DNA from: Leptonemataceae bacterium
GTDB lineage: Bacteria > Spirochaetota > Leptospiria > Leptospirales > Leptonemataceae
NCBI GenBank assembly: GCA_965227295.1
Contig: OZ245742.1
Location: forward strand, 4,288,001-4,352,000
Length of the DNA: 64,000 bases
Direction of reading: 5' to 3'
A program made the translations under genes and the position numbers. Positions 2,601 to 47,187 of this stretch are shown here, in pieces; the first letter of the stretch is position 1; every line of letters starts with the position of its first letter. The notes beneath the pieces are model-generated. The model did not search any database and had not been told where the DNA came from. It saw only the letters and a list, made by a program, of their open reading frames with translations.

Positions 2601-4985
2601 ATGCGCACAGCCCTGAGTCGTCCTCGACGCATCGCACTCATCTGTCTGATAGCCGTTGTCCTGGTGCCCCTCCTTGCCGTGGCCCGTTGCTCTCTGCTTA
2701 CGACGCGGCTGCCCGCGGAACGCAGCCGGGCCGAACGCCACGCCGACTTTCCCACGGGCCCGCTGCCCGTGCAACAATCTGTACACGTCTACTGGAACGA
2801 CGCTCAGGTACCGTTCATCGACGCGCGGGACGACCACGATCTCTTCTTCGCCCTGGGACTGGTCCATGCCCATCTGCGCCTGGGACAAATGGAAACCCTG
2901 CGCCGCATCGCGAAGGGACGCATCAGTGAAATGGCGGGTCCGCTGACGACGGACATCGATCATGCGCTGCGCATCATCGGGTTTGCCCGGGCCGGGGCGA
3001 GGAGCGTCGACGCCCTGCGTCCGGATACGCGCCGGTTCGTTGAAGAGTACGTGCGCGGCATTAATTTTTACGCAGCGAATCTTAAGAAAGAAGGGCGCCT
3101 GCCCTACGAGTTCGCCGCTCTGAACTTCGAGTGGGAACCCTGGAGCGTTGCCGATGTCATGACCCTCGGCCGTCTCGCCGCTACGGATGTGAACTGGCTG
3201 TTGTGGTTGCGCCTCTTGAGTTTTTCGGATCATCCGAAGTACGACGAACTCCGCGGTCGATACATGCGCATCGGCTCCGGATCCCTTCCGTCGTTTGCGG
3301 CCGGTGCTCTCAAGCGAAGTCCTGCGAATCGCGGCGCACAGCGCGAACTGCTCGCGTCGTTGCTCGCCGGCCACAGTCGCTCCGGTTCGAATTCGTTCGT
3401 CCTCGCCCGGGATCGCTTTCGCGCACCCGACGGCACGCCCGCCGCGGCGGTGGTCAGCGATCCGCACCTGGGCATTCTGATTCCGAACGTGTGGATTATC
3501 GCCGGTTACCGCTCGCCGTCGTTCCACGCCGTGGGACTCATGATCCCGGGCCTGCCGATCCTGGGCCTGGGTCGTAACCGGGACATCGCCTGGGGCGGCA
3601 CGAACATGCGCTCGCGCTCCAGCGACCTCTACGACGTCACTAACATTCCCGAATCAGAACTTACCATACAGACAGAACGCATTCGGGTCCGTTCTTTTTT
3701 CGATGAGGAACGCCGCGTACGCATGTCTCCTCACGGCCCGGTGCTCTCCGACGCCGCTCTCATCGAAGGCGCGGGGGAACGACGCATCGCGCTGCGCTGG
3801 GTGGGCCACGACGCCTCCGACGAGATCTCGGCCTTCCTGGATATGCAACGCGCAAGTGACTTCCAGGAATTCCGCCGCGCCTTTCAAAGCTACGCGGTAT
3901 CCGGGCAGAACTTCCTGTACGCCGACCGCCGGGGCAACATCGGCCAGATCGCGGCCTACCGGCAACCGTTGCGTCGGGCCTCGGAACATGATCCGCTGGT
4001 GCTGGATCCCGACAACCCGGCCCATCGCTGGAGCGGCTTTCGCGATCCCACGCAGTTGCCGTACGCCTACAATCCCGCGGAAGGTTTTCTCGCCTCGGCG
4101 AACAACAAACCCATGCACGTCGATCCGCCCATCTCGCCGTTCTTCGGCAGCAACGATCGCATCCGCCGCCTCAAACAATTGCTCGCCCGGGACCGCGGCG
4201 TGCTGGATCGTGAAGCCCTGAACGCCGTGCAACAGGACGTCTATTCCATCTCAGGTGTGGAGGTCCGCGACGCTTTGCTCGCGGCTTTGAATGCGAAAAA
4301 GACCGCGCACGCGAAAGTAAACAACCAGGCCGGTGAAGTTTACAGGGCCTTTGCTGATTGGGACGGCAACTATGATCGCGATTCCACCGGAGCGCTCGCC
4401 TTTCAGTTGATCATTAAGTATCTCGCAGAAGAAGTTTACGGAGATATCTACGGCGAAGAATTTCCTTCTGCGCTGCTGTCCTCGGAACTCACGCTGCGCT
4501 TTTTAAAGGATGATCTGAGCGGTCCGTATCGTCCGCGGATTCTTGCCGCCCTTCCCGCGGCCTTTCGCCGGGCGCGCGCGCCTTTCGAAGAATTCGGGGC
4601 CTGGGGTGAGATGCATCGCTTGCGACTGGCGCATCCCCTGGGGAACATTCCCTGGCTCGGCGCACGCTATCGTTTGTACGAGGCGCCGGCGGACGGTTCG
4701 GCGACGACCCTCTGGAAGACGGCGCATAACATTACGGACGAAAAGCACTACACCAGCTACGGCGCAAACGCCCGGCACATCTCTCTCATGCACGACGACG
4801 ACGCGAACTACTTTGTATTACTCGGCGGCCAGGACGGTCGCTTCTCCACGCCGAATCTGATCGACCAGACCGAACTCTGGATGCGCGGCGAGTTCATACG
4901 AGTGCCGCTGCGCCTGGAAACGGTACGGCGCGAGTTCACGTACGTTTCGAAACTCAGCCCGAACGCATCAGGCGGCGAACCATAA
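2601..4985 (+). CDS. Penicillin acylase family (Ntn hydrolase) protein
   Basis: GSNSFV autoprocessing motif, DPHL, SANN, N-terminal TM anchor; start chosen at ATG 2601. Confidence 0.9.
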   Translation: MRTALSRPRRIALICLIAVVLVPLLAVARCSLLTTRLPAERSRAERHADFPTGPLPVQQSVHVYWNDAQVPFIDARDDHDLFFALGLVHAHLRLGQMETLRRIAKGRISEMAGPLTTDIDHALRIIGFARAGARSVDALRPDTRRFVEEYVRGINFYAANLKKEGRLPYEFAALNFEWEPWSVADVMTLGRLAATDVNWLLWLRLLSFSDHPKYDELRGRYMRIGSGSLPSFAAGALKRSPANRGAQRELLASLLAGHSRSGSNSFVLARDRFRAPDGTPAAAVVSDPHLGILIPNVWIIAGYRSPSFHAVGLMIPGLPILGLGRNRDIAWGGTNMRSRSSDLYDVTNIPESELTIQTERIRVRSFFDEERRVRMSPHGPVLSDAALIEGAGERRIALRWVGHDASDEISAFLDMQRASDFQEFRRAFQSYAVSGQNFLYADRRGNIGQIAAYRQPLRRASEHDPLVLDPDNPAHRWSGFRDPTQLPYAYNPAEGFLASANNKPMHVDPPISPFFGSNDRIRRLKQLLARDRGVLDREALNAVQQDVYSISGVEVRDALLAALNAKKTAHAKVNNQAGEVYRAFADWDGNYDRDSTGALAFQLIIKYLAEEVYGDIYGEEFPSALLSSELTLRFLKDDLSGPYRPRILAALPAAFRRARAPFEEFGAWGEMHRLRLAHPLGNIPWLGARYRLYEAPADGSATTLWKTAHNITDEKHYTSYGANARHISLMHDDDANYFVLLGGQDGRFSTPNLIDQTELWMRGEFIRVPLRLETVRREFTYVSKLSPNASGGEP

Positions 4986-9224: not shown

Positions 9225-9355
9225 GGGCGTCTCGGAAGGCGCCAGGCCCAGGCGCCTTCCGACCGCGCTACTCCGGGCTCCGCTATCGCTTCGGTCCTCC
9301 GCTTCGCTCCGGACTCGCGGCTTCGCCGCGACCCTGCGTATCGCTGACGCAAAGA
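9225..9355 (+). repeat. Structured intergenic element, copy A
   Basis: GGGCGTC-hairpin-CCGCGCT...ATCGCTGACGC-AAAGA; aligns by eye with the six other copies. Confidence 0.9.
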
Positions 9356-9402: not shown

Positions 9403-10242
9403 TCAAGTCATAATCGAATCAAACATGAACGTCGGGATAATGCCGCTGCTCCGAATCTGCATGCGCGCTTTCTCTTTCAGCGTGTTCCCGGAGAGCACCA
9501 GCGCCGTATCGATGCCGAACTGATTCGCCCCCAGAATGTCCGTGTGCAACGTATCGCCCACCATGAGTATCTCGGACTTCTTAACATCCGGCAAAAGTTC
9601 CTTAGCGCGAGCAAAAGCGTACGAGAAAATCTGCGTATCCGGTTTGCCGAAGCGCACGAACGTACGACCCAGAATGCTTTCGATCATGGTGGCGAGACTG
9701 CCCACGGCCACCGCGATCCGCCGGGAGTTCACCGGATACGAGGCGTCCGTGTTGGCGACGATTACGGGCACGTTCACCTCACGCAAAATATTCAAGGTTT
9801 CGTTCAAATGCAAAAACCAATCAAAACCCTCGTCGTCCATGAAAGCGACGGCACCCAGACCGTGCGCGTCACTGACTTCGGCGATGGGCACCGCGGTGCA
9901 ACCGGCGGATTCAATGTAGTACGCCGACGGCGGCTGACCGAGATAGGCCACCACGCGCCGGTCCCGGGGAACCTTGGCCGCGAGAAACTGCGCGGCGAGC
10001 ATGCCCGACGAAACGATCTGCTCACGCGGTACCAGTTCGTTGTACGATTTCACCATGACGTCCGGCGACTTCGAGGCGTCGTTGGTGATGACGTAACTGC
10101 GCACGCCGTCGGCCGTGAGACCGGCGAGGACTTCCGGCACGCCGTCGATGATGCCCCGGGAGTTACGCAAAACGCCGTAGGCGTCGAAGAAAATCACCCG
10201 GTAATGGCGGGCCGCGGCGGCGAAGGATACATCCGTTTTCAT
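9403..10242 (-). CDS. HAD-superfamily subfamily IIA hydrolase (NagD-like)
   Basis: FDAYGVL, ITND, GKP, MVGDTLHTDILGA. Confidence 0.92.
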   Translation of the reverse strand: MKTDVSFAAAARHYRVIFFDAYGVLRNSRGIIDGVPEVLAGLTADGVRSYVITNDASKSPDVMVKSYNELVPREQIVSSGMLAAQFLAAKVPRDRRVVAYLGQPPSAYYIESAGCTAVPIAEVSDAHGLGAVAFMDDEGFDWFLHLNETLNILREVNVPVIVANTDASYPVNSRRIAVAVGSLATMIESILGRTFVRFGKPDTQIFSYAFARAKELLPDVKKSEILMVGDTLHTDILGANQFGIDTALVLSGNTLKEKARMQIRSSGIIPTFMFDSIMT

Positions 10243-10613: not shown

Positions 10614-11036
10614 ATGCAAAGCTCATCCATCTTCCAACCGATCACAAGAATAATTTTGTACGGCTTCCTGGTCTGGCTCGTCCCCTTCCTGGCGGCCATG
10701 GCCTTTTTCACTCCCGAGGGCGAACTGAGCATCGACATCTTCTTGTTCAAGACGATCATGCTCCTCATCTCGACGCCGCTCGGTCTCTTCCTCATGGCCG
10801 TGCATCTGCGGCGTTGTCCGGATCGTTATCTACAGCGCGGCCTCTTCGCAGGGATCGTGTGGATCCTGATCAACTGGGGCCTGGACTTCGCGATTCTGCT
10901 GCAATTGAGCGGGCAAAGCCCCGGCGAGTACTTCGTGCAAATCGGCCTGCGCTACTTCGCAATGATCTTTAGCGGCCTCTTCATGGGCTACGCGATAGAC
11001 GGCGTACTCACCGCGAAATCCACGCCGGAGCGCTGA
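10614..11036 (+). CDS. Four-TM membrane protein
   Basis: Hydrophobic ORF; ATG 10614 just after the MerR-type promoter; 2 bp from the merR gene. Confidence 0.7.
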   Translation: MQSSSIFQPITRIILYGFLVWLVPFLAAMAFFTPEGELSIDIFLFKTIMLLISTPLGLFLMAVHLRRCPDRYLQRGLFAGIVWILINWGLDFAILLQLSGQSPGEYFVQIGLRYFAMIFSGLFMGYAIDGVLTAKSTPER

Positions 11037-23857: not shown

Positions 23858-23929
23858 CATCCCGTAGGGGAATCGAACCCCTGTTGCTGGAATGAAAATC
23901 CAGAGTCCTAACCGCTAGACGAACGGGAC
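23858..23929 (-). tRNA. tRNA-Glu (TTC)
   Basis: Reverse complement GTCCCGT..CTGGA-TTTTCAT-TCCAG..GGTTCGATTCC..ACGGGATG folds as a cloverleaf. Confidence 0.96.
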
Positions 23930-24067: not shown

Positions 24068-24140
24068 TGAGGCGTCAGGGGCTCGAACCCTGGACCACTT
24101 CCTTAAAAGGGAAATGCTCTACCAACTGAGCTAACGCCTC
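24068..24140 (-). tRNA. tRNA-Lys (TTT)
   Basis: Reverse complement GAGGCGTTAGCTCAGTTGGTAGAGC..CTTTTAA..GGTTCGAGCCC..CGCCTCA. Confidence 0.96.
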
Positions 24141-24864: not shown

Positions 24865-24977
24865 GGGCGCCCCCGCCCCTCCGGGGCGGTCGGGCTGCTC
24901 CGGGCGTGAAAGTAGCGACGCGTCTTACGCGTCGTCGGGTGGGGAATCCGCTGGCGCGGATTCCATGCTTCGCTGCG
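24865..24977 (+). repeat. Structured intergenic element, copy B 5' half (interrupted by IS)
   Basis: GGGCGCCCCCGCCCC-TCC-GGGGCGGTCGGGCTGCTCCGGG, nearly identical to the 5' end of copy G. Confidence 0.85.
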
Positions 24978-26134
24978 GGGGCTGACCAAAAAGTGGCCTG
25001 CCAGAAGAGATAGGGCATTCATTTTATTGGGGGGAGCTCCGCTCCCCCTGGCTCCGACCCGCGTCGCTACGCGAACGCCCGGGCCTCGCCTTCGGCGACC
25101 GGCTCACCCTCCGGGCAAGCCTGGCCCGGGCTCGCGGTTCTCCGCCACCCCCTCGGTGTGCAGGCTCCGTTCGCAGCTCATTCTTTTAACATTATGGGCA
25201 AGATAGAACAACCCGGCGTCGGCTTGTGCGCCGGCAAGGCCCCGGGTTACATACCGGCGCCGCTTTTGATTGAATTTGCCGTCTCCGAAAACGGTTTCCA
25301 CAGCATGGCCCCGCACTCGTTGAAACTCACGACCCTGCGGGCTGTTAAGATTCTCTCGTGTGATGTTACGCAGCCTCTCCAGATTCGGACGCACGGTCAG
25401 CGTGCCGGAACTACCCGGCGTGCATTTCTGCCGTAACGGACACTGTATGCAATCCGGAGGCGCGCTGTACTCACGGCTGTGCTCCACATACCCCGTGCGA
25501 CTCAGACGACTCTTCGTTCGCTGAAAAGGCAAACGTCCCCCGGCCGGGCAGGTATAGACGTCACTGAATTCATCATACGAAAAACGGTTCAAGCGTACAC
25601 GTTCTTCATTCCATTTTGGAGATCTTTCACGAGATGATGCCGTCTTTCATGCGCATCGGCCGGGCGTCATGATCCGTGCGCGAACAGCCATTGCGATTTT
25701 GCAGGATTTCCCGCTGTTTTTCGTACTTTTCGCGCCGGCGTTCTAACTCACGCGTTCTGCGGAGTTTTTTTTAGTGTCTGCGAGCATCATGCGCGGATCA
25801 TGCGCGGATCATACGCACTCGTGCCGCCGCCGCGATAGGCAGTGTAGAGTTCACTGAGGTCCATCCTGTCAATCAACTCGCTGACAATCCGTGCCAGATG
25901 CCCCGGCTCCACGTAGTCTTCTGTACTCGGCGGGAAAAGATAACTCTCGTTTTGAACATACGGCTTGAACTTCTGCGCCCTGGGCTTCCGCGAGGCACCA
26001 CTCAATTCGGTCGTTTCAGGGAAAAGTTCGTCTGCGTGCGGATCTGACATGGGCAGAGCCTCAACCGGCCATCGCCCTTTTCCAGGAATTTTCGTTGTGT
26101 CAAGTCCGTATCCAGGACCTTTTTGGTCAGCCCC
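24978..26134 (-). mobile_element. IS1182-family element, internally deleted (1157 bp)
   Basis: Perfect 16-bp terminal inverted repeats GGGGCTGACCAAAAAG (24978-24993 / 26119-26134) enclosing transposase fragments. Confidence 0.88.
25104..26050 (-). pseudogene. IS1182 transposase pseudogene (N-terminal fragment 25787-26050, C-terminal fragment 25104-~25631)
   Basis: FKPY.Q...LFPPS..DY...HLAR...AYDPRM (N-term); YTCPAG..C..CPLRQKC..VETVFG..K..AHN (C-term); central DDE region missing. Confidence 0.88.
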
Positions 26135-26169
26135 TGGCTTCGCCACCCTGCGCATCCCTGGCGCGAAGA
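26135..26169 (+). repeat. Structured intergenic element, copy B 3' half
   Basis: TGGCTTCGCCA-CCCTGCGCATCCCTGGCGC-GAAGA directly after the IS TIR; matches the 3' end of copy G. Confidence 0.88.
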
Positions 26170-36189: not shown

Positions 36190-37212
<1,023 letters not shown>

Positions 37213-37242
37213 TCAAGTCACTTATAGGGGGAAAATACGCTT

Positions 37243-37347
37243 TCTTCGCGCCAGGGTGGTCGCGAAGCGAGTCTTTGCGCAGCAAAGACCGAAGCCGAAG
37301 GCGGAGCCCTGGAAAGCCCGGTCGACGCCGAAGGCGGCGAGGCGCCC
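37243..37347 (-). repeat. Structured intergenic element, copy C
   Basis: Reverse complement GGGCGCC-hairpin-CCGGGCTTTCCAGGGCTCCGCC...CCCTGGCGC-GAAGA. Confidence 0.85.
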
Positions 37348-37437
37348 TGAAAAAATCTCCGGTGACAACACGCGGCTTAGCTTAACTTAAGTTGATATTT
37401 ACCGGGGCGACCCGCCCGCCCGGCAGAGTGGAATTGG

Positions 37438-38313
37438 TCATTTCCGCAGCTGCTCGATGATCTCCGGAAAGTTCTCGTGGTTCCCGGCGGCCGCCGCTTC
37501 TTTCGAGTATTCCTGCGCGTACAATGCCAGTTCGTACGCGTTGCTGCCGTACATGTTCACATACTCCAGGCTCGCGCCCCGGTTTACGAGCAAACGCACC
37601 GTATCGACGTGCCCGAACCAGATGGCGTGATGCAGCGCCGTCATCTTTGAGTCGCCAGGCGCATCGATGTCGAAGATCTGCGGCGCCGAATCCAGCAAAC
37701 GTTCGATGAACGCCGTGCGCCCCTCTTTCGCGAGGTCCGTGTGGATTATACGCACGTATTCGGAGGCTTCCGCGTGCGGCGGGACGTGGGCGGTCTTGCC
37801 GTTCGCGCAAACAACCACCGCCGCCTCAACCGGCGACAGCGCGGTGCGCACACCCGCGGCCAGCGTGCCAATCACTTGCGGATCGCGGTCGAGCATTACG
37901 GCCAGGGCGTAGGCCGTGTGGCCGTGCCAGGTCGCGGCGACGTTCGCGCCGGCTTTGATTAACATGTTAATCGAAACCACGCCCCGCCCCCGGCGCACGG
38001 CGTGGTGCAGGGCCGTGCCGGAGTTGTTGAGATCCTCGTCCGGATCGGCGCCGGCGTCGAGGAGCAGTTGCAGGCCCTCCCGGTGGCCGCCGGTTTCATC
38101 GTGCGGGTCGTCCTCGAAGTCGAGCTTGCGTTTCAGGGCGTTGGTACCTTCGGGCCGCGCGCCGGCTTCCAACAATATGCGCAGATAGACCGGGTCCTGG
38201 TGTTCGGCGGCGTGATACAGGGACTCGTTATCGTTCGGGTCCCGGCCGGCAGCCAGGAGCTCGCGTACGCGTTCCAGTTCGCCGCGCGCCACGGCCGCGT
38301 AGAGTTCGCTCAC
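37438..38313 (-). CDS. Ankyrin repeat protein
   Basis: TALHHAV, MTALHHAI..GH...V.LL, LL.AGA.P. Confidence 0.9.
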   Translation of the reverse strand: MSELYAAVARGELERVRELLAAGRDPNDNESLYHAAEHQDPVYLRILLEAGARPEGTNALKRKLDFEDDPHDETGGHREGLQLLLDAGADPDEDLNNSGTALHHAVRRGRGVVSINMLIKAGANVAATWHGHTAYALAVMLDRDPQVIGTLAAGVRTALSPVEAAVVVCANGKTAHVPPHAEASEYVRIIHTDLAKEGRTAFIERLLDSAPQIFDIDAPGDSKMTALHHAIWFGHVDTVRLLVNRGASLEYVNMYGSNAYELALYAQEYSKEAAAAGNHENFPEIIEQLRK

Positions 38314-38981
38314 AGGATGTTACTCAGGTCTTTGATGTCTTGAATCACGGCCGCGGCCCCCTCCCATTCCTCGACCGTGCCGTGGCCGTACGCCGCCGCA
38401 ATGAACGGCACGCCGTTCGAGATCGCCGCGTCGCGATCCGAGGTCCGGTCGCCGATTACCACGGCTTCGTCGGCCGCGTAGCCGCCGGCACGCAGGCAGT
38501 ACGCCACGAGCTCGTTTTTATTGTGAATGGTGCGATTGTCCACGAACGGCACGTCACGAAATAGGGCGTACGTGCCGTTCTTTCTCAAGATCGCCTCTAC
38601 GTACGGATAGCGCCCGTTGGAGACGCCCCAGAATTCGTAACCGCGCTCGCGTAACTTACGCAGAGTTTCAGTTACCCCGTCGTAGTGCTCGCCCTCCCCG
38701 AACGTAATGCCGCGCACCAGGCCGTGCAGGATCGTAAGGCTCAACTGCGATCGTTCGCGTTCGTCCAGGTCCGGCGCCAGGTTTTCGAAGATCACCTTCA
38801 CGGGCTTGCCGACCTGTTCCATAATCTCGGGAAGCGACGGCACCTTCTTCGGCTTGCCGTAGGTACTTCGAAACTCGTGGAACGACCGGGCGTAGATGGT
38901 GTGGATCATGCCCTCGCTGGAAAAAAGGGTGCCGTCCACGTCCCATAAGATGGCTTTGATTTTCGCTTTATTGAATGTCAT
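38310..38981 (-). CDS. HAD family hydrolase (phosphoglycolate phosphatase-like)
   Basis: WDVDGTL, SNG, IGDRTSD, YGHG. Confidence 0.9.
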   Translation of the reverse strand: MTFNKAKIKAILWDVDGTLFSSEGMIHTIYARSFHEFRSTYGKPKKVPSLPEIMEQVGKPVKVIFENLAPDLDERERSQLSLTILHGLVRGITFGEGEHYDGVTETLRKLRERGYEFWGVSNGRYPYVEAILRKNGTYALFRDVPFVDNRTIHNKNELVAYCLRAGGYAADEAVVIGDRTSDRDAAISNGVPFIAAAYGHGTVEEWEGAAAVIQDIKDLSNIL

Positions 38982-38994
38982 ACAGATTTCTTAA

Positions 38995-39105
38995 CTCTTG
39001 CGCCAGGGATTGAAGCGATGGCCGAAGGCCAGTCTCACCGCAGGTGAGACCGAAGCGATAGCGGAGTCGCGCAAAGCCCGGTCGCCGCGTAGCGGCGAGG
39101 CGCCC
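38995..39105 (-). repeat. Structured intergenic element, copy D
   Basis: Reverse complement GGGCGCC-hairpin-CCGGGCT..CGA-CTCCGCTATCGC...TCG..ATCCCTGGCGC-AAGAG. Confidence 0.9.
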
Positions 39106-39147
39106 AAACAAATCTTCCTGAATCTTATCTTAACCGCCTCTTTATTT

Positions 39148-39358
39148 GGGCGCCCCCGCCACGGGTCCGCTCTCGGCATCCATGCCTCCGCGGACACTTC
39201 CAACGTCTTGTTGGTCGCCTGGCGGTCGGGCTACTCCGCACTCCGCTATCGGCCAGTGGGGAACATCTACCGCGGCCACGACAAGCGTGGCCTTGCTGGT
39301 CCTCCGCTTCGCTCCGGACTGGCGCTTCGCGCCATGCTACGTATCCCTGGCGCGAAGA
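39148..39358 (+). repeat. Structured intergenic element, copy E (expanded)
   Basis: Same termini and core motifs, with extra hairpins inserted in two arms. Confidence 0.88.
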
Positions 39359-39384
39359 TTTAAGAGACGCACTCAGCAAATCTT

Positions 39385-40488
39385 TCACCGGTCCAACTCA
39401 AACGATTCAATGAACCGTTCAATCACTTCAATATGATCCTTCTCCGGGCTGTCGTGTATGTTCGAAGGTTCGTAGAGATGCTCGTCGAACAAATGAAAGT
39501 CGAAGATCTTTAACTGAAAGTCCGGCAACGTAATGATGATGTTTTCCGTGTGAATGTCCAGGATCAAGCGATCCCGCGTGGCGAGCAGTTCCGTGAACTT
39601 GATCAACCGGCGGAAATCCTCCGTAATTTTCAAGAGCACTTTTTTTTTGATCTTCCCGAAACGGCCGATGTCGAATTCGAAATCGTAAGCCGGCATGAAC
39701 GTGCGGCCCAGAAGGCCCTGATCGCGTTTGCGACCGGCCGTGGCGAATTCTTTCAGGTGTTTGCCCATGAGCAGGACCTGGGAGTCCATGGGCATCATCT
39801 TGCGCGAATAGAAGTCCTCATTCAAGCGGCGCCGGTAGCGCACGCCCATAAAAAACTTCGTGGGCAGCACCAGATCTCGCAGTTGCTCACGCACGATCCA
39901 GTAATGATACCGCTCCAGGCCCAGGCGGTAGAACTTACCCCGCAGACGTTCCCGGCGCCAGCGCGGGAGCCGGCTTTCGTAATGATCCAGTAAGTGCAAC
40001 TCTTCGGGTCTTAAGAAACCTTCTTTGTTGTCGACCACCTCCCGGTACAACGAGCCGAAGACCGGGTCCGAGCCGAGGATGTCCTTCGAAACCTTGACGA
40101 CCATCTGCCACGGGAGTTTGTAGACGAACTTGTACGAACCGCGCCCGATGTACGACTCCGGCGTAATCGGCATGAAATCTTCAAGAAACTCGCGATCGTG
40201 TTTGTAGTTCAAACGGAAGATGTGCGTGATCGGAAAGAGGTGCTCGTAGAGCCGCCGCGGCCAGGAGGACTGGCGCAACTGAAAATCCACGGGCAGTTGT
40301 TCGATGGACGGGGCCGTGAGTTCCCGGGCGCGATCGAAGGCCTGTTCGATCCACTTCTCGTCCGAGAACGAATCCATGAGCGAGCGCATGTAGGCCCCGG
40401 CATCCTGGCCGCTCTGTTCGACGCGCTTCCGGCCGCGACGGAGCCGATCGCGGACGCGGTCGTAAAATTTTCTGAATTCACCGGGCAT
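39385..40488 (-). CDS. Atypical protein-kinase-like protein
   Basis: IGRGSYKFVY Gly-loop, VVKV, LDIHTENI, IFDFH. Confidence 0.65.
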   Translation of the reverse strand: MPGEFRKFYDRVRDRLRRGRKRVEQSGQDAGAYMRSLMDSFSDEKWIEQAFDRARELTAPSIEQLPVDFQLRQSSWPRRLYEHLFPITHIFRLNYKHDREFLEDFMPITPESYIGRGSYKFVYKLPWQMVVKVSKDILGSDPVFGSLYREVVDNKEGFLRPEELHLLDHYESRLPRWRRERLRGKFYRLGLERYHYWIVREQLRDLVLPTKFFMGVRYRRRLNEDFYSRKMMPMDSQVLLMGKHLKEFATAGRKRDQGLLGRTFMPAYDFEFDIGRFGKIKKKVLLKITEDFRRLIKFTELLATRDRLILDIHTENIIITLPDFQLKIFDFHLFDEHLYEPSNIHDSPEKDHIEVIERFIESFELDR

Positions 40489-46904: not shown

Positions 46905-47024
46905 CTCTTGCGTCAGCGATTGGAAGGGTGGCCGAAGGCCAGTCTCGCGCAGCGAGACCGGAGCGAAGCGGAGCCCTGGAAAGCGCGGTGCCCGGCGGCT
47001 TCCGACGCCGCCGGGCAGACGCCC
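46905..47024 (-). repeat. Structured intergenic element, copy F
   Basis: Reverse complement GGGCGTC-hairpin-CCGCGCTTTCCAGGG...CCCTTCCAATCGCTGACGC-AAGAG. Confidence 0.9.
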
Positions 47025-47069
47025 ATCATCCCAATTAAGATTTTCCAGATGAATCTTAAGAATTAATTT

Positions 47070-47187
47070 GGGCGCCCCCGCCCCTGTGGGGCGGTCGGGC
47101 TGCTCCGGGCTCCGCTTCGCTTCGGTCCTCCGCCTTCGGCTCCGGACTCGCGCTAACGCGCGACCCTGCGCATCCCTGGCGCAAAGA
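47070..47187 (+). repeat. Structured intergenic element, copy G
   Basis: GGGCGCC-hairpin-TCGGGCTGCTCCGGG...CCCTGCGCATCCCTGGCGC-AAAGA. Confidence 0.9.

Follow-up and report, generated by a model that had tools for sequence, protein, structure and literature searches.

A dispersed intergenic repeat with a conserved fold and one-strand GNA loops in a Leptonemataceae genome, possibly read as single-stranded DNA

Positions 37243-37347 of the window, a 64-kb stretch of DNA (4,288,001-4,352,000) taken from the single-contig genome (5.94 Mb, 59.8% G+C) of a Leptonemataceae bacterium, hold one internally deleted member of an intergenic repeat family, ~105-135 nt in length, that is dispersed through the genome. 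The element works as a folded single strand whose polarity is fixed, and the strand is probably DNA rather than RNA. We propose, with a probability of roughly 0.4, that the family is a new REP/BIME-like mobile repeat, read as a folded single strand, probably of DNA, and that its partner enzyme is not a Y1-HUH transposase. Most dispersed repeats of bacteria are simple hairpins confined to one species. A REP is a 20-40-nt hairpin with a fixed tag, is species-specific and is accompanied by a Y1-HUH gene, and recognition of the folded single strand is the accepted model; BIMEs consist of alternating REP types and bind IHF and gyrase. Within the literature searched the present family is undescribed: the 16-base core string was not found, and publications on repeats, GNA triloops and Leptospira repeats or MITEs held no description of the element. 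The REP/BIME-like kind is thus known, but the architecture and the cross-phylum core are not.

Results

Copies of the element in the window

Seven copies or fragments of the element were located in the window, plus one further fragment at 24865-24905. Copy C (37243-37347, + strand, TCTTCGCGCCAGGG...GAGGCGCCC) spans the full length of the family but has lost ~7 nt internally after CAGGG. Its helix P1 pairs GCGCC (37248-37252) with GGCGC (37341-37345), and the same + strand carries the hairpins TCGC-GAA-GCGA (TCGCGAAGCGA, 37260-37270, cGAAg loop) and TCTTTGC-GCA-GCAAAGA (TCTTTGCGCAGCAAAGA, 37272-37288, cGCAg loop), the mini-hairpin GCC-GAA-GGC (GCCGAAGGC, 37294-37302), whose flanks GAA and GGA make up a 3x3 purine loop, and the terminal hairpin H4, CGACGCC-GAA-GGCGGCG (37323-37339). 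The string GCCGAAGGC also occurs at 37327-37335 (+). Because the ~7 nt after CAGGG are absent, the minimum-energy fold of copy C is unlike the family fold. The minimum-energy structure of copy D (38996-39105, + strand) is the whole family architecture, with helices P1 (39000-39004 with 39099-39103), P2 (39006-39008 with 39077-39079), P3 (39010-39012 with 39072-39074) and P4 (39015-39018 with 39067-39070) and hairpins H1 (39019-39031, loop GAA), H2 (39032-39050, GCA), H3 (39055-39062, GATA) and H4 (39082-39098, GTA), all on the + strand, where the strings CACCGCAGGTG (39036-39046) and CCGCGTAGCGG (39085-39095) are also found. A sequence-only reading of this DNA had quoted hairpin strings from copies C and D, and all of them are present on the + strand.

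Copy D is paired across an A+T-rich spacer (39106-39147) with a convergent 211-nt copy (39148-39358, - strand) that contains extra sequence within its arms. This amounts to ~90 nt of additional hairpin-forming sequence in two arms, and similar nested additions were observed in several genomic copies. Another convergent pair is formed by the full copies at 46906-47024 (+, GCGTC...GACGC type) and 47070-47187 (-, GCGCC...GGCGC type). The A+T-rich spacers of convergent pairs (39106-39147, 47025-47069 and other loci) are partly conserved between loci (CAATTTCA..GATTTTTAG..GCTAACTTATA..), and a TATAAT-like box is present in some of them. A full copy with a long terminal hairpin lies at 9225-9355 (-), and the 5' part of a copy at 26120-26169 (-) is fused to another repeated module (GGGGCTGACCAAAAAGGTC...). 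The second repeated module, GGGGCTGACCAAAAAGTCGCGGG..GACG..GTCGC.., present at 26100-26169 (-) of the window and at other loci of the genome, is fused to truncated 5' parts of the element; elsewhere it lies directly upstream of full copies. The fragment at 24865-24905 (+) matches the complement of the 3' end of the copy at 47070-47187 with 95% identity, and hence represents a partial copy on the - strand; it is adjoined by two tRNA genes (23858-23929 and 24068-24140, both -). At the gathering score, Rfam 15 recovered two tRNAs alone in the whole window, leaving the element with no family, and a search up to E = 10 over 36900-39500 returned nothing relevant.

Family size and conserved fold

A regular expression for the 5' motif identified 98 sites in the genome, 52 on the + strand and 46 on the - strand, and at 74 of them the 3' motif followed 101-226 nt downstream (median 122). 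A sequence profile built from 67 copies gave 212 genome matches that were merged to 211. Full-length copies account for 116 of these, and 113 of the 116 are intergenic according to the analysis's own gene calls. A covariance model built from 45 copies gave at least 150 matches in the genome.

The architecture consists of four long-range helices and three to four hairpins. P1 has the form GCGNN/NNCGC, followed by CCA, and its N-N positions pair as CG, UA, GC and AU; in the 116 full copies the dinucleotide was CC (44), TC (22), TT (21), TG (13), CG (9) or CA (6). P2 is GSG/CSC (27 GC, 17 CG), and P3, P4 and hairpin H1 vary likewise. The order along the irregular arm is P2, an A-G mismatch, P3, a 3x3 GNA/GNA loop and P4. 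A three-way junction bears the variable terminal hairpin, and a distal junction holds two or three mini-hairpins, including the near-invariant CC-GAA-GC-GAA-GC-GGA-GG. Internal 3x3 loops with GNA on both sides are found between P3 and P4 and beneath two hairpins.

Across the 45 copies, 15 of the 21 modelled pairs stay paired despite changes on both sides. The fold was also recovered in 31 copies from other genomes belonging to several phyla: 94.9% of the cells across the 21 modelled pairs are paired, none of 500 shuffles attained the observed pairing or covariation, and pairing falls to 30-44% when the partner columns are shifted by 1-3. The GCGAAGC core is invariant in 30/30 distinct cross-phylum rows. 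Whatever the working molecule, template-switch correction of palindromes could be an alternative source of the near-perfect stems.

GNA loops and purine internal loops lie on one strand

Loops were counted in minimum-energy folds of the 116 full copies restricted to Watson-Crick pairs, with stems of at least 2 bp, a restriction chosen so that both strands were handled alike. The TCTT strand formed 430 hairpins, of which 205 carried GNA and 53 GNNA loops (258 in all, 255 of them closed by C-G), and only one TNC and one TNNC loop, corresponding to GNA/GNNA read on the opposite strand. When the complement was folded, a single GNA/GNNA loop was obtained among 456 hairpins. The one-strand bias proposed by the sequence-only reading is therefore stronger than first stated (258 of 430 versus 2). 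Its description of the loops also holds: the G, the A and the C-G closure are kept, as in the d(GCGNAGC) mini-hairpin, while the middle base of the GNA loops varies (A 91, C 70, T 40, G 4), and the complement gives the triloops cTTCg, cTGCg and cTACg, not cUUCGg. GNRA makes up 16/53 GNNA loops, i.e. 16/430 hairpin loops. The same asymmetry was observed in a low-GC genome of the order (28/71 GNA/GNNA loops versus 1/73 on the complement) and in the 31 copies from several phyla (30/97 versus 1/104). Furthermore, 168 hairpins of the 116 copies are stacked on C-G-closed 3x3 GNA/GNA internal loops, compared to none on the complement. Since all the non-canonical purine motifs are on the TCTT..GCGNN..NNCGCCC strand, the element works as a folded single strand with that polarity.

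In near-identical close pairs of copies, the middle base of the GNA loop differs at 16/64 sites, roughly fivefold more often than stem positions do, and changes at the G and A loop ends are no commoner than in stems. Hypermutability of the middle base was considered (16/64 versus 91/1026 other unpaired sites), but no such claim is made because the other unpaired sites include constrained bases.

The strand is probably DNA

The sequence-only reading had proposed folded single-stranded DNA as the active form. The single strand is borne out by the counts above, and DNA as its chemistry is supported in part. The chemistry fits DNA better than RNA, as cGNAg triloops dominate and GNRA loops are rare. 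In the available part of one review, d(GCGAAGC) melts at 76.5 C and r(GCGAAAGC), a near relative of r(GCGAAGC), at 39 C (PMC13037366). In Watson-Crick-only folds, isolated stem mismatches in the element were G-T in 8 cases and A-C in 6, whereas the same procedure applied to 81 tRNA calls of the genome gave 20 G-T and 2 A-C, mirrored on the antisense strand; an RNA-type wobble signal is thus detectable in this genome and is absent from the element. Ordinary minimum-energy folds gave inconsistent G-T counts through register shifts (99 and 139 for the two strands), and were replaced by the Watson-Crick-only folds. Nearest-neighbour DNA energies differ only slightly between the two strands (-31.4 versus -30.0 and -32.8 versus -30.6 kcal/mol). 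Upstream of the element nothing is conserved, and hence no promoter motif is seen, and downstream a T-run is absent. After one Hymenobacter copy there is a terminator, with an A-run before the stem and a T-run after it, which may belong to a convergent Toprim gene and was not taken as RNA evidence.

Position relative to replication and genes

The origin and terminus were placed by GC skew at 1.18 and 4.10 Mb. The sequence-only reading had called for orientation to be compared with leading and lagging strands, and the comparison revealed no replication bias: 65/116 full copies (p = 0.23), 109/211 matches and 42/73 single copies have their TCTT strand on the lagging-strand template. Orientation relative to genes is biased. 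Of 49 singles that lie between co-directional genes, 34 are mRNA-sense and 15 antisense (p = 0.009), and in a second genome six were sense and none antisense. The core starts 8-20 nt past the stop codon of a co-oriented gene in 13/68 copies, and singles were found 9 times in 568 divergent gaps versus 15 times in 269 convergent gaps. Antisense singles (15) and sense singles (34) are folded equally well. The sense bias, the proximity to stop codons and the avoidance of divergent gaps may reflect an RNA role, a filter of insertion tolerance or folding of the non-template strand during transcription.

Of the 35 close pairs, 34 are inverted (20 convergently and 14 divergently) and one is tandem. 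Spacers measure 37-125 nt in convergent pairs, where they are A+T-rich and partly conserved, and 9-21 nt in divergent pairs. In 13 of the 18 convergent pairs that could be typed, a CAGGG-type copy (S=G) is joined with an AGCG-type copy (S=C).

Distribution and recent movement

The family extends across the order, is patchy across the phylum and also occurs in records of Bacteroidota, Planctomycetota and Proteobacteria. At E <= 0.001 the model matched 28/41 genomes of the order, the present genome included, with 12/24 in its own family and 15/16 in a second family. In a sample of the phylum, with the best 23 candidates per genome scored, 19/151 genomes matched at E <= 1e-5. The exact 21-base core was found in 34 records of the species collection, mostly titled Spirochaetota, and 31/34 match the whole model; others bearing the core are two Hymenobacter isolates, Planctomycetota, one Deltaproteobacteria record, one Methylococcaceae record and one archaeal bin.

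The family has moved, and recently. Five relatives contain 2, 2, 6, 8 and 35 copies (150 candidates scored in each) compared to at least 150 in the present genome. A pair of copies from distant loci shows 100% identity over 124 nt, with different flanks. In two congeners the copies are absent from the orthologous gaps; in this comparison the flanking mdh is ~80% identical and the gaps are not alignable, so that insertion boundaries and target duplications are unreadable.

Mobile DNA and candidate enzymes

A group II intron of ~1.9 kb, encoding a 471-aa RT/maturase that has no HNH domain and with RNA domains matching RF02001 and RF00029, is present outside the window in two copies (2020597-~2022490 and 2367840-~2369730), each inserted in a different copy of the element. 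In both cases insertion occurred at the NNCG^CCCA bond with the polarity of the TCTT strand, and the element resumes as CCCA. Both intron copies are on the + strand of the replichore in which + is the lagging-strand template. For group IIC introns, a DNA hairpin before the site is reported as a recognition feature in the part of PMC3898094 available. The genome also has ten genes for reverse transcriptases, which fall into five groups and include four identical frames of 456 aa, and so carries several active retroelements.

In other phyla the element lies within ~250 nt of IS66, IS110 and ISAs1-like transposase genes. In Hymenobacter two plasmid-like copies are beside Rep3 initiator and Toprim genes, on a contig that also has LPD29. 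A Planctomycetota record (L097) contains three copies in one orientation within 6.3 kb (4586-4685, 10029-10127 and 10786-10884), beside a complete IS66 (tnpA, tnpB, tnpC) and around DUF3732 and ABC-3C middle-component genes, a region that looks like a defence island. In the present genome, PT-HINT polymorphic-toxin cassettes, followed by small ORFs, are arrayed at positions 2279781-2289696. A copy of the element lies 64-211 nt upstream of every cassette in the same orientation, belonging to a subfamily with an extra 5'-side GCTAAC...GTTAGC hairpin; similar subfamily copies precede genes of 921 and 837 aa that have no Pfam family. We considered whether distant inverted copies act as transposon ends and rejected this, as the 0.5-4 kb gaps between them contain ordinary genes, toxin cassettes or the intron, and no shared transposase.

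Searches for candidate enzymes gave 0 matches in the complete genome for Y1-HUH (PF01797), for which the control matched in 6/14 genomes, and 0 for TnpB (PF07282), with working controls; the Y2 transposase (PF04986) also gave 0 matches, and its control likewise had no match anywhere. A 130-aa GIY-YIG gene is present at 308786-309175; its product has a lysine-rich N-terminal tail and matches only PF01541 in Pfam and no NCBIfam family. The nearest copies of the element are at 301789-301895 and 312834-312945, none within ~3.5 kb. A homologue occurs in most genera of the family. It was not found in two congeners with 2 element matches each, in 10/10 genomes of genus g22, all of which matched the model at E <= 0.001, or in genome G026, which has 35 copies.

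Discussion

The element shares with REP, BIME and REPIN sequences its hundreds of intergenic copies, mostly behind genes, and its use as a target by an intron and insertion sequences; with BIMEs it also shares inverted pairs, set spacers and alternating subtypes. Unlike REP, it is a multi-helix junction of 105-135 nt with a core common to several phyla, and a Y1-HUH gene was not found in the genome. In the mobile repeat that we favour, the fold would be what the copying or moving machinery recognises, and would form in DNA that is single-stranded for a time, and selection would retain copies mainly behind genes. A census of the Leptospirales reports a median of 154 MITEs per genome (PMC11602168); the inverted pairs of the element would resemble MITEs to such a tool, and the fold and loop bias are not described in the available part of that study. 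The loops also recall the d(GCGNAGC)/d(GCGNNAGC) mini-hairpins of the phage G4 origin, the RSF1010 ssiA and the phage N4 early promoters, as presented in the accessible text of Kimoto and Hirao 2026 (PMC13037366), since the cGNAg/cGNNAg form with a free middle base is the same and GCGAAGC itself is the invariant core. Those signals, by contrast, are single phage or plasmid sites with a known enzyme, and the element is chromosome-wide with no orientation to replication. It is conceivable, at rather low odds, that the element is a natural cross-phylum multi-helix DNA junction, made of GNA mini-hairpins and GNA/GNA purine zippers on a non-template or otherwise exposed strand and read by a class of enzyme that has yet to be connected with repeats. 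Such a junction might, for example, mark gene ends during transcription or be a site of single-strand initiation or cleavage.

Structured RNAs typically look like this, with unpaired bases conserved in a multi-helix junction that is itself conserved, and REP sequences in E. coli mRNAs can act as an exonuclease barrier or as the source of a processed small RNA. An RNA element transcribed with the upstream gene and acting as sense RNA in the 3' untranslated region, in either of these two ways, is accordingly a serious if doubtful contender, in which the DNA-type loops would be incidental or owed to a binding protein. The sense bias in both genomes, the cores close behind stop codons, the scarcity in divergent gaps and the strong covariation would all follow from it. 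It is harder to reconcile with the lack of a wobble excess seen in tRNAs, the near absence of GNRA and UNCG loops where triloops dominate, the absence of both a promoter motif and a T-run, and the absence of a matching Rfam family; moreover, 15 of the 49 singles, and one copy in every one of the 34 inverted pairs, oppose the transcription of their neighbour and yet fold equally well. Binding of the palindromic modules as a duplex or cruciform by a host protein, with purine loops that merely ease extrusion, would suit the strand-symmetric Watson-Crick stems, the fixed spacer classes of inverted pairs (14-21 nt and 37-125 nt) and the indifference to replication. We consider it improbable, because a double-stranded site has no need for G and A to be kept on one strand only in 258 loops and 168 internal loops, nor for an irregular arm of purine mismatches conserved across phyla.

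Two kinds of known enzyme could also be invoked for a folded strand. In Neisseria, the NTS/SRM hairpins are recognised by SsnA, a GIY-YIG nuclease specific to single-stranded DNA (Chenal et al. 2025, PMC11893778, from the portion available). The Ssn repeats, as far as the accessible text describes them, resemble the element in being hundreds of strand-specific hairpins without replication bias, present in many phyla and read as single-stranded DNA, and the present genome encodes the 130-aa GIY-YIG protein, whose homologue was not found in the two congeners with 2 element matches each. That the repeats are sites of this small nuclease, modulating the uptake or recombination of incoming single strands, is nevertheless quite improbable: the SRM is ~30 nt, has a CGTC tag and flanks the ssn gene according to the same text, whereas the element is about four times as long and lacks the tag, the GIY-YIG gene is unflanked, and the two do not co-occur, as in g22 and G026 the element is present and the homologue was not found. 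The sequence-only reading had compared the element to substrates of HUH transposases or to attC sites. The latter are recombination sites formed by a folded single strand; their stems covary, they have extrahelical bases and conserved core sites at both ends, and they form arrays in one orientation beside an integrase. They also host group IIC introns (PMC3898094, in the part available). The folded strand, the covarying stems and the hosting of a group II intron are common to both, and one-strand hairpins, dispersed intergenic copies in inverted pairs and a few places with same-orientation copies between gene cassettes (the toxin array and the three copies of the Planctomycetota record) would be compatible with a Y1-HUH substrate, such as a REP/RAYT or an IS200/IS605 relic, or an attC-type site. 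This likeness was weakened by the analysis and such an origin is most improbable: PF01797 and PF07282 gave no match with working controls, the insertion bias towards the lagging-strand template that marks IS200/IS605 ends and PATE was not seen, the lagging-strand logic of attC is absent, the P1 dinucleotide varies so freely that there is no fixed attC-like core site, and with 34 inverted pairs and 1 tandem among 35 the close pairs are not attC-like, nor do most copies form same-orientation arrays.

As a mobile repeat probably read in single-stranded DNA, the element differs from the usual dispersed repeat in having a conserved, covarying architecture of ~120 nt, common to distant phyla and with no entry in Rfam. 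Its signature of d(GNA) triloops, purine zippers and no wobble may separate DNA from RNA folding computationally and, if it holds experimentally, would allow further single-strand DNA signals to be found; the signature points, too, to an enzyme that reads them. If the reading as a DNA junction is true, the element would be the largest conserved single-stranded DNA tertiary motif known in bacterial chromosomes. As a landing site of a group II intron and a neighbour of insertion sequences, the element shapes where mobile DNA settles.
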